A stretch of 64,000 nt of DNA. It comes from Escherichia coli (lineage in GTDB: Bacteria > Pseudomonadota > Gammaproteobacteria > Enterobacterales > Enterobacteriaceae). Of the stretch, positions 31,158 through 34,027 are shown one piece after another. The DNA lies in assembly GCF_016026235.1 (NCBI RefSeq), contig NZ_CP065613.1; one strand, 5' to 3'. Every line of letters starts with the position of its first letter. Position 1 is the first letter of the stretch. Below the pieces are notes generated by a model. That model had not been told where the DNA came from and ran no database searches. It was given only the letters and a program-made list of their open reading frames with translations. A program made the position numbers and the translations under genes.

Positions 31158-31587
31158 ATGTCTTTATCTCGCGCAGCGATTGTCGACCAGCTAAAGGAAA
31201 TTGTTGGTGCAGATCGCGTAATTACCGATGAAACAGTATTAAAGAAGAACAGTATTGACCGTTTTCGTAAATTTCCGGATATTCATGGTATTTATACTTT
31301 GCCGATTCCGGCAGCGGTCGTAAAACTCGGTTCCACAGAGCAAGTATCCCGTGTGCTGAATTTTATGAATGCGCACAAAATTAACGGTGTGCCGCGTACC
31401 GGTGCTTCCGCCACCGAAGGTGGGCTGGAAACTGTTGTAGAAAACTCGGTGGTGCTCGACGGTTCCGCCATGAATCAAATCATTAATATTGATATTGAGA
31501 ATATGCAGGCGACGGCGCAATGTGGCGTTCCGCTGGAGGTGCTGGAAAACGCGTTGCGTGAAAAAGGTTACACCACGGGGCATTCTC
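31158..31587 (+). pseudogene. ygcU: FAD-linked oxidoreductase YgcU, 5' fragment truncated by IS10-like copy 2
   Basis: MSLSRAAIVDQLKEIVGADRVITDETVLKKNSIDRFRKFPDIHGIYTLPIPAAVVKLGSTEQV... (FAD-binding PCMH N-terminus) ends after about 143 codons at the IS terminus (31588). Confidence 0.8.
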
Positions 31588-32882
31588 CTGAGGGATCCCC
31601 AGAAAATTTAGTAAACCATTATCATATTGGTATACCGTTGCTGTAGAACTTTCAGCCCTGCGTCAAGTGACAGTGTGTTTAGTATGAGTGGAGAATGTCG
31701 AATCACATTCTCCGCCAGTTTTAATAACGAGATGACTCGCCTGTGCTTCACTGTATTTGCCTGATATTTATGATGTATCCCTTTGTTTTCCAGGCTGAAA
31801 CCGCTTAACCACATAATGATACTGGCTAATGTTGCGATCAGACTCAATACCGTGACCCGCCCGGATGAATGACTGGCACCAAACCGTAGTCCAAATCCCC
31901 AGCGAGGATTTTTTTCATCCCTGAAATTTTGCTCAATTTGCATTCTACGGCTGTATAATTTCATTACCTGTTTTGGCGAGAACTCAGTACTGTTTGTGAA
32001 AATAAACCATGGTGATTTCCCGGCAGTACGAGCTTTAGCCGTCACCGATGGTCTGGTTGCTCTTTCCTTCGAGCGTTTAAATCAACGACCTTTAGGCTTA
32101 CTTTTATAAAGATAAAAATGCCCTTCATGTTGTGCATTTTTATCTCGACCCAGCAGGCCTTCACCTAAATAAATTGCTGTCGTTGATGCTTTTGTGCCTG
32201 AGTCCGACACCTTTTCCCAGCCATTACCAACATTGTAATAATGATTGCCCAGTACCCGGCAAATATAGGTCCAGCCACGGGAGCGGAGCTGTTGGAACCA
32301 TCGCCCCTGAAAACCGGCATCTGTAATAACAATGACATCAGTCCCGGGGGAAAAGCACTCAGCAAGCGATTCCAGAAAACGCTCATGTACATCTGCATTC
32401 GCTGTCTGTGATGATGGAACGACACAACTCATCAACGGTAAAGAACGCCCGTCACATGCCAGGCTTGCCCGCAAAAGCTGAAAACGAGAGGCATGATAAG
32501 CACTCCAGTCAATGAGTATCACAACACGAGACATTCCCCGCGTAATCTTTTGGGTAATTCGCTGAAAAATGGTGGAAACCTCATTTTGCAAATGTCGATT
32601 CCCCAACAGTCGATCCACCCGCTTTATTTTGTTTTTAACTGATGCCGTACCGGTTAAATGACGCCCGATACTGGTAAGTGTGAGGGAAGCGCCATTTATT
32701 ACAGCATTAGTTGCGTCAATCAGTGATTTTTGACGGTAAAGATGCAAAGGGGCCAGTATGTTGTTAAGGAAATTTTGGCATAATGAACGTGCAGGCATAG
32801 TGGTGATCTCCTTGAAATTGTTAGCACAATCAATTAGATCACATCTCACTATGCCTGTCTTGTTTTCTGGGGATTCCTCAGG
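31588..32882 (-). mobile_element. IS10-like insertion sequence (copy 2), no flanking target duplication
   Basis: Same termini as copy 1 in inverse orientation (CTGAGGGATCCCCAGAAAAT...GGGGATTCCTCAGG). Left flank GGCATTCTC and right flank GGAAATATC differ, so the flanks are not a simple insertion site. Confidence 0.85.
31608..32798 (-). pseudogene. IS10-like transposase with premature stop
   Basis: Identical to the copy-1 transposase except codon AGA (Arg in ...KPKGRRFKR...) reads TGA at 32082-32084, splitting the ORF into 32082-32798 and 31608-32045. Confidence 0.85.
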
Positions 32883-34027
32883 GAAATATCCTGCATTAAC
32901 GCAGGCCACGCCCGATACCAGCCAGGGCGTTGCAAAAGCGCCGGAACATGCTGATAACGCTGTAGAATATCCCACAGCAGGCTGCGCTCGACGTTGTGAT
33001 GATAAAGCGCAAACAGATTTTGCGGCTCGCGGTGCTGGCAGGCGCTTATCAGCGTTTGTGCCGCCGCCTGCGCGCCAGTCAGCGCCATATCCATGCCGCG
33101 CACGGAAATTCCGGTATTGACGCAACTGCGCAACGCATCGCCCACCAGCAGCCAGCCGTTACCGGCGTATTGCACCGGCATACTGTGCAAGCCACCTTCT
33201 GGCACCAGATGCGCACCATACTCCAGTGATTCCGTGTTTTTGATAAGCGGGCGCACTGCCGGATGCGCTTTAAAGCGAGTCAGCAGCTCGCTTGCCGGAA
33301 CACGACTTTGCGTAAGGGAAGAGAGCGGGCAAACAATCCCTAACGAGAGCGTTTGTTGATTAGTATAAAGAAATGCGCCGCTGGGTAAGTCATCACAGAT
33401 CCTGCCGCTGAACAGCAACGCTGCGCCTTCGTTATTCTCCAGATGAAAACGTTCTTCAATAGCGGATGTTTCCAGCGACAGCACTTCTTTGATCCCCAAC
33501 GCCATCGCTTCGCCAGCAGGACGAGTCACTAACCCGTGACGTTCAGCCAGGACGCTGTTGGCACCTTCTGCCAGCACCACATAACGGGCGCGGAGAATAT
33601 CGTCACCACAAATGACACCACACACTCTGCCGTTTTCTTCATACAGTGCATCCACCGTCGCACCAGGGATGCATTCGACACCTTCTTTTTCGGCTTCGGC
33701 AACCAGCCACGGATCGAACCGTGCACGTAATACACTCCAGGATTCACCGCCGGGCTGTAAGCTGGAAAACGTCGTTGCGCCATCCGGCGTTAACAGGGAA
33801 AGGCTTTCGTGAGTGATGCGTCGTTCAAGAGGCGCGGTCAGATGAAACTGAGGGAGGAGTTCCGCGAGTGCATGGGTATATAACCGCCCGCCGGAAAGAT
33901 TTTTGCTGCCGGGGATTTCAGCGCGTTCCAGTAACAAAACGGATAAACCCGCTCGCGCGCAGCGTAACGCGCAAGCGGTGCCTGCAATACCGGCACCAAT
34001 AATAATAATGTCGCAGTCGTCTTCCAT
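32883..34027 (-). pseudogene. ygcN: FixC-like flavoprotein oxidoreductase YgcN, 3' end replaced by IS
   Basis: MEDDCDIIIIGAGIAGTACALRCARAGLSVLLLERAEIPGSKN... (FAD/NAD-binding GxGxxG); reading frame continues into the IS10-like terminus and ends there after about 385 codons. Confidence 0.75.

Follow-up and report, generated by a model that had tools for sequence, protein, structure and literature searches.

IS copy 2 of the window (the whole 64-kb stretch of Escherichia coli DNA analysed here) stands where 5.2 kb of adjoining chromosome is gone, joining a truncated ygcU gene to a truncated ygcN gene. It is confirmed as the product of a real, ordinary IS-associated deletion of dispensable genes, a routine new instance of a well-known process. 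The features of the region are as follows.

30303..31088, plus strand: ygcW (SDR oxidoreductase), intact, the left neighbour of truncated ygcU, from the K-12 alignment and the gene call in the identical contig L004
31158..31587, plus strand: ygcU', codons 1-143 of the FAD-linked oxidoreductase gene; the open reading frame continues into the IS to 31646
31578..31587, plus strand: 10-bp hot-spot target GGGCATTCTC, on both sides of the IS in the simple insertions L003 and L018, left copy only in the window
31588..32881, minus strand: IS copy 2 (IS4-family, ISEc60-family, IS10-related), 1,294 bp, with the transposase gene on the minus strand
31588-31606 and 32863-32881: terminal inverted repeats of IS copy 2, read from the sequence
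31608..32081, minus strand: remainder of the transposase frame, codons 240-396, including the RMQIEQNFRD motif, untranslated from the native start
32082..32084, minus strand: nonsense codon R239* (AGA to TGA), codon 239 of 396; IS position 497 reads A, against T in all the other full copies examined
32082..32798, minus strand: transposase N-terminal fragment, 238 codons, stopping at the premature TGA
32882..32891, plus strand: GGAAATATCC, the ygcN 10-mer that adjoins the new joint and fits the target preference of the IS by weight matrix
32882..34027, minus strand: ygcN', FixC-like FAD oxidoreductase gene cut to codons 1-382 of 423; its open reading frame enters the IS by 10 codons, to 32849
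34105..34470, minus strand: queD, intact, the right neighbour of ygcN as in K-12, from the K-12 alignment and the gene call

The gene order of K-12 MG1655 (cysJ, queD, ygcN, ygcO, ygcP, ygcQ, ygcR, ygcS, ygcU, ygcW, yqcE, ygcE) matches the order ygcN-ygcO-ygcP-ygcQ-ygcR-ygcS-ygcU that the original prediction had given, and the window is collinear with it in reverse orientation. In the alignment to K-12 that had been proposed as a check, both flanks of the IS match and 5.2 kb is gone between them: window positions 29249-31588 correspond to NC_000913.3 2,901,326-2,898,988 and positions 32881-38000 to 2,893,803-2,888,684, and 5,184 bp (2,893,804-2,898,987, plus or minus one ambiguous base per joint) is absent, or 5,185-5,186 bp if, at each joint, the one base that could belong to either IS or chromosome is counted as IS. 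The predicted loss of several kilobases, including the electron-transfer flavoprotein-like ygcQ and ygcR and their neighbours, is borne out by this alignment, the missing DNA comprising ygcU from codon 144 on, ygcS, ygcR, ygcQ, ygcP, ygcO and the last 125 nucleotides of ygcN. The flanks of IS copy 2 (...gggcattctc on the left, ggaaatatcc... on the right) share no target duplication, and re-reading them upheld the earlier statement that it is missing. The order and orientation of the flanks are those of K-12, apart from a missing internal segment, which fits an IS-associated deletion.

The two truncations had also been described accurately: exactly 143 native codons of ygcU (about 143 had been claimed) stand left of IS copy 2, and ygcN lacks its 3' end there, having lost its last 41 codons. 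The YgcU' orf (31158-31646) encodes 143 native and 19 IS-coded residues, a fusion of 162 amino acids that is recorded exactly as WP_038341782.1 ('FAD-binding oxidoreductase, partial'), and the YgcN' orf (32849-34027, minus strand) encodes 382 native and 10 IS-coded residues, 392 amino acids in all. For annotation, ygcU and ygcN of the strain in the window are pseudogene remnants fused to an IS, not short paralogues. The lost cluster encoded the ETF-like YgcQ and YgcR, the FixC/FixX-like YgcN and YgcO (ygcN being partly kept), the transporter YgcS and the FAD oxidase YgcU; the literature on ISEc60 and the ygc genes yielded nothing bearing on the ygcU-ygcN locus.

The ends of IS copy 2 are CTGAGGGATCCCCAGAAAA and CTGAGGAATCCCCAGAAAA (19 nucleotides each, 18 of 19 matching), and intact copies of the element consist of a single transposase orf of 396 codons bounded by the inverted repeats. 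The transposase scores 360.5 bits against NCBIfam NF033591 (transpos_IS4_2, cutoff 152), which places it in the IS4 family; Pfam PF01609 (DDE_Tnp_1) is annotated on the called transposase genes; and identical proteins (WP_001111632.1) are named 'IS4-like element ISEc60 family transposase' by NCBI, which is a label and not an alignment to an ISfinder reference. Identity to the IS10 transposase is about 36%, an approximate figure. The name 'IS10-like' given in the original prediction is therefore loose: the element is indeed IS10-related, within the same broad transposase family, but its family proper is IS4 (NF033591) and its NCBI name is the ISEc60 family. No solved structure matched the copy 2 transposase by sequence.

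Other insertion sequences of the window that bear on the argument are these.

24523-25816: IS copy 1, inverted relative to copy 2, intact, inserted in a CRISPR-2 repeat and flanked by the 10-bp duplication GCGAGTTCCC
28481-29248: IS1 in yqcE, 2.3 kb left of IS copy 2, with a clean 9-bp duplication, GTTGGTGGA
39544-40303: IS copy 3, cut off by an IS4

Copies of the ISEc60-family element are about 99.9% identical to one another. A repeat search that returned 1,311-nucleotide arms, '100%' identical, for copies 1 and 2 had hinted at common flanks and a history of inversion; upon direct reading, the extra bases are chance partial matches, the flanks differ and the true IS is 1,294 bp.

The nonsense codon that had been claimed in the transposase gene is present, and it is unique to copy 2. 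Codon 239 is AGA in all other full copies examined (window copy 1, L002, L003 and L008); position 497 is the sole difference of copy 2 from copy 1 and from the L002 and L008 copies, and the L003 copy has the same base as copy 1 at this position plus one further difference elsewhere. R239* is known from one long-read assembly because the other assemblies of the lineage stop short of that region of copy 2. The RMQIEQNFRD region, missing from the truncated product, contains the third catalytic acidic residue according to an alignment with IS10. By stripping this C-terminal part, R239* leaves copy 2 unable to supply its own transposase.

The left end of IS copy 2 lies at a site in ygcU that the element has entered repeatedly. 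The same left junction is present in five ygcU haplotypes, that of the window and four more, which are 2-3% divergent in the surrounding DNA and have SNPs as near as 38-56 bp to the joint. In GCA_009900865.1 (L003/L016), the IS has inserted simply, duplicating the 10 bp GGGCATTCTC, the ygc cluster is complete and the ygcU haplotype is that of an IS-free strain at every variable site; in GCA_900448215.1 (L018), the IS occupies the same site with the same duplication in the opposite orientation, again beside an intact cluster. The differing haplotypes and the opposite orientation identify these as separate insertions rather than one shared allele. The L003/L016 insertions, the junction of which is the left junction of IS copy 2, belong to other lineages and are not direct ancestors. 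Because the site repeatedly takes ordinary insertions, the ygcU joint of the window is a normal transposase-made junction and the ygcN joint is the derived one. In FDAARGOS_943, which belongs to the same lineage as the window (one mismatch in 3.6 kb), ygcN and ygcO are full; therefore, the truncation of ygcN is recent and derived.

The ygcN joint was compared with the target preference of the element, for which thirteen independent IS flanks were pooled from the window, related loci, plasmids, chromosomes and metagenome contigs, the ygcN site being left out of the matrix. The flanks define a palindromic preference, GGGA-WWW-TCCC, often inside gcg...cgc, and the duplications at simple insertions are of 10 bp (window copy 1, L003, L018, L036, L038 and L042) or 11 bp (L037 and L040). 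Ranked by this weight matrix against every 10-mer in 100 kb of K-12, GGAAATATCC falls within the top 0.14% (top 0.09-0.19% under the first, nine-site matrix), and the deleted interval has just nine positions that equal or exceed its score. That GGAAATATCC is among the best-scoring targets indicates that the transposase, and not random breakage, set the end point of the deletion, and the flanking sequences indicate that both joints were selected in this way. A metagenome scan for the left end of the IS found five loci (two new target sites and three repeated plasmid sites), none of them in ygcN.

Only two points are mildly new, namely that ygcU has a recurrent hot spot and that this IS, which has been little studied, has a palindromic target motif; both could help to type ISs and to predict where rearrangements break the chromosome. 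It is a rather doubtful extension of them that the element is strongly site-selective for a palindromic target, gcg-GGGA-WWW-TCCC-cgc, which resembles the core of the element's terminal repeats (GGGATCCCC), and that this turns particular sites into predictable, recurring points of gene loss, among them the type I-E CRISPR repeat and the ygcU site, with its independent hits in at least five lineages of E. coli; were this true, CRISPR arrays would be disabled systematically by the element, and deletions would arise from it at set positions. In FDAARGOS_943, the full-length counterpart of copy 3 adjoins a degenerate CRISPR-like repeat and the cas genes are gone. To the right of copy 3 and its IS4 in the window, lysS-prfB-recJ-dsbC-xerD (K-12 about 3.03 Mb) follow in ascending order, which implies an inversion of about 146 kb relative to K-12; no cas genes were found between this junction and the end of the window.

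The explanation favoured for IS copy 2, with a probability that we would place near even, is that a simple insertion in ygcU was followed by a one-step, transposase-mediated adjacent deletion, in preference to a two-step route of second insertion and recombination. An ISEc60-family element entered the preferred ygcU site GGGCATTCTC, a step shown by the comparison with simple insertions in other E. coli lineages. Its right end, which carries the transposase start, would then have been joined to GGAAATATCC, 5.2 kb away in ygcN, so that the right copy of the duplication disappeared together with the remainder of ygcU, all of ygcS, ygcR, ygcQ, ygcP and ygcO, and the end of ygcN, the element keeping its original left junction throughout. 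The mutation R239*, itself observed, may have been acquired then or at some other point. The upshot is that a catabolic cluster, uncharacterised and dispensable, has been lost for good; in this strain, the IS1 in yqcE is a further hit on the cluster.

An absent target duplication is commonly explained either by adjacent deletion or by recombination between IS copies (PMC11708052), and that paper cites Roberts et al. 1991 (Genetics 128:37) for adjacent deletions by IS10. The event proposed here would resemble those deletions in the broad transposase family involved, in that the element stays put and one side of it is lost up to a new target, and in the lack of a duplication; it differs in that the element of copy 2 is about 36% identical to the IS10 transposase, makes duplications of 10-11 bp and prefers GGGA-WWW-TCCC, and in that its mechanism is read from sequence. 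IS10 makes duplications of 9 bp and has the target preference NGCTNAGCN. In the 1991 work of Roberts, Ascherman and Kleckner, adjacent deletions by IS10 reportedly occurred at low frequency, about 1/30 of the transposition rate, and synapsis of IS10 ends on sister chromosomes is said to have been proposed. The 'IS-mediated adjacent deletion' of the original prediction thus stands as the leading mechanism, but not as the sole one, since insertion followed by recombination gives an identical product; no intermediate was found.

That two-step route, somewhat less probable but a serious contender, supposes that a second copy in the same orientation inserted at GGAAATATCC in ygcN, with a left junction that would read ...AAATCGCGGGAAATATCC and then CTGAGGGATCCCCAG, after which RecA-dependent recombination between the 1.3-kb direct repeats removed one copy and 5.2 kb. 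It would yield the exact product, including the lack of a duplication and the target-like ygcN joint, a joint that is expected under the one-step and the two-step route alike; because the final sequence is the same, the window does not separate them. The lineage has many copies of this IS from which a second insertion could come (33-38 matching places in FDAARGOS_943, three in the 64-kb window), the IS-based rearrangement nearby (the inversion at the junction of copy 3 and IS4) raises the prior for recombination, and a metagenome contig (L008) connects a ygcU-borne IS to ampH. Deletions between IS copies are widely described in the IS-rich genomes of Shigella, enteroinvasive E. coli and Bordetella. 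Recombination between identical ISs is a frequent cause of missing duplications, and deletions of this origin arose in the long-term evolution experiment (PMC11708052). The window resembles the outcome of recombination between direct IS copies in having one IS left, non-matching flanks and the loss of the genes between, and departs from it in that a second insertion would be needed and none was observed.

Look-ups of the junction proteins found no assembly in which an IS in ygcN is followed by the 3' end of ygcN. When both junction proteins and the C-terminal fragment of ygcU were looked up by exact match for a two-copy intermediate, every hit was to the deleted form, to a contig that stops within the IS or to another lineage. 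Contigs from short reads are interrupted within the IS and hence could not reveal such an intermediate, and strain F9792, taken as a proxy for the ygcU 3' sequence of the lineage, is about 1% divergent, too distant for an exact-match look-up. The one-step deletion is preferred because the two-step route requires an extra specific event, a hop into a particular 5-kb interval in the right orientation. This preference leans on the rate reported for IS10 and on a rough estimate of how seldom a hop would fall within 5 kb in the required orientation.

Far less probable than either route is a single non-canonical event with no prior simple insertion, in which an incoming IS would have joined its left end to ygcU and its right end to ygcN, or would have filled a break during the deletion. 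Such an event could account for the target-like sequence at both joints and for the finding that the sampled contigs of the window lineage include no ancestral state, nor a simple-insertion ancestor, and IS movements coupled to large rearrangements without duplication have been proposed (PMC11708052); however, the transposase complex normally attacks one target at positions 10-11 bp apart, as the duplications at other copies attest, and a ygcU site that repeatedly takes ordinary simple insertions makes a stepwise history simpler.

The junctions recur in other assemblies. Window positions 21158-41646 (20.5 kb) are 100% identical to a 4.56-Mb contig of the E. coli assembly GCA_900449985.1, the exact 162-residue YgcU'-IS fusion is encoded in 12 contigs, and the exact 392-residue YgcN'-IS fusion is encoded in nine, several of which come from other assemblies and have zero mismatches in their flanks. 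As both junctions are found elsewhere with identical flanks, the junction sequences are not an artefact of one assembly. Among the lineage members sampled, one junction appears always to be accompanied by the other (the right junction in nine contigs, the left in about as many); a search of 5,426 complete RefSeq E. coli genomes for the left or the right junction found neither. In assembly GCA_902503985.1, where both junctions are present, yqcE is intact, from which it follows that the deletion is older than the IS1 insertion. The notion that an assembler collapsed two IS copies with 5.2 kb between them, to which the near identity of the copies and the linkage of both junctions through a single IS in one long contig only (L004/L012, identical to the window) lend themselves, is very improbable, given that a contig of 4.56 Mb suggests a long-read assembly, in which repeats of 1.3 kb can be bridged, that the region from cysH to ygcN' in the short-read assembly GCA_902503985.1 is a 6.8-kb contig with IS right ends on both sides, as the deletion predicts, and that the shown contigs with a 3' fragment of ygcU come from other lineages (a weak test, an exact protein match being required).

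The ygc cluster has been lost in other ways. In FDAARGOS_943, a deletion of 5,663 bp runs from mid-ygcW through ygcP, and the joint is occupied by an IS1 that lacks a duplication; lineage, locus, the presence of an IS and the lack of a duplication are shared with the window, whereas the IS (IS1) and the end points differ, and ygcN and ygcO are intact. In MB06234, a truncated ygcU is joined to a truncated ygcN with 5,181 bp lost and flanks that overlap by 17 aligned bases, and in ET734, a truncated ygcU is joined to the queD side with 6,164 bp lost and flanks that overlap by nine aligned bases. The same cluster and a truncated ygcU are involved as in the window, but neither strain has an IS at the joint, and the overlaps suggest microhomology-mediated deletions. 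The adjacency of ygcU and ygcN is not the natural arrangement, as might have been supposed against the original prediction: K-12 has the full cluster, and the joins in MB06234 (to ygcN) and ET734 (to the queD side) result from separate deletions with other end points. At least four independent deletions of the cluster are known (one by the ISEc60-family IS, one by IS1 and two without an IS), and several strains have a premature TAG in ygcU seven codons past the hot spot; given the repeated independent loss and the frequent stops in ygcU, selection on the cluster appears to be relaxed. In two further strains, an IS5-family transposase and an IS1A transposase, respectively, are listed beside ygcN. 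Taken alone, the deletion in the window matters little: it is another case in which an IS has cost an IS-rich E. coli lineage a catabolic cluster that is uncharacterised and dispensable.

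The ygcU site into which the IS inserted is the 10-bp sequence GGGCATTCTC (31578-31587 in the window), and the IS is present there in five different ygcU haplotypes (besides the window, the compared loci L003/L016, L007, L008 and L018), with its orientation reversed in one (L018). The insertions are therefore independent. A target preference for the palindrome GGGA-WWW-TCCC, often surrounded by gcg...cgc and giving duplications of 10-11 bp, was derived from the flanks of the IS in the window (24513-24522, 25817-25826 and 39534-39543) and in the compared loci L028-L032 and L036-L042; this palindrome is similar to the core of the terminal repeats of the IS itself (GGGATCCCC / GGAATCCCC). 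Scored by itself, the ygcU 10-mer reaches no higher than the top 0.19% of sites, and therefore the 10-mer alone does not explain the frequent use of the ygcU site.

Other mobile element insertions in the window are as follows.

Mobile elements of the window other than the IS copy in ygcU
24523-25816 (within 24273-25846): IS copy 1, within a repeat of the CRISPR-2 array, in the queE-ygcE interval
28481-29248: IS1, 768 bp, interrupting yqcE and flanked by a clean duplication of 9 bp (GTTGGTGGA)
39544-41730: region of IS copy 3, which starts at 39544, is interrupted by IS4 and retains only IS positions 535-1294
about 40304-41730: the IS4 that cuts copy 3

The insertion of copy 1 into the CRISPR-2 repeat produced a 10-bp duplication (GCGAGTTCCC). 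The close relative FDAARGOS_943 has copy 3 in full-length form, directly adjoining a degenerate CRISPR-like repeat beside iap, and all cas genes are missing. No cas genes, iap or cysDNC were found further along the window beyond copy 3 and IS4; past IS4 are lysS, prfB, recJ, dsbC, xerD and fldB (41765-48484), genes that K-12 carries at a distance of about 146 kb and in reversed relative orientation. Such a distance and orientation imply a large inversion bounded by IS elements. The IS1 insertion in yqcE postdates the ygcU-ygcN deletion, because assembly GCA_902503985.1, whose flanks are identical, contains the two deletion junctions yet has an intact yqcE.

The ygc cluster has undergone three more independent deletions of 5.2-6.2 kb.

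Joints of the other ygc deletions
FDAARGOS_943 (L002 8819-9586): IS1 at the joint, without duplication
MB06234 (L026 3664-3680): IS-free, flanks overlapping by 17 aligned bases
ET734 (L027 3355-3363): IS-free, flanks overlapping by 9 aligned bases

In several unrelated E. coli (L019, L021, L023 and L024), CAG has mutated to TAG at ygcU codon 151, seven codons past the IS hot spot, leaving ORFs of 150 and 333 amino acids; three other loci (L020, L022 and L025) have ygcU split into ORFs of 155 and 333 amino acids. Even in the absence of an IS, ygcU is often a pseudogene.

In metagenome contig ERZ27286973 k141_71067 (L008 5747-6049), the IS in the ygcU site leads into sequence of ampH, a gene located about 2.5 Mb from ygcU in K-12; the join reflects either rearrangement between IS copies or a chimera that the assembler created through the repeat. 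The chromosome of E. coli CFSAN029787 (L038) has two ISEc60-family copies less than 450 bp apart, flanking an Ibs-family toxin gene; therefore, closely spaced IS copies do occur, as needed by a two-step deletion route in which a second IS copy in ygcN recombines with the direct copy in ygcU. The window segment 19599-23053 is absent from the K-12 region used for comparison; contig L004, which is identical to the window, has genes for LemA and TPM-domain proteins in this stretch where K-12 has its yqcG-ygcG arrangement.
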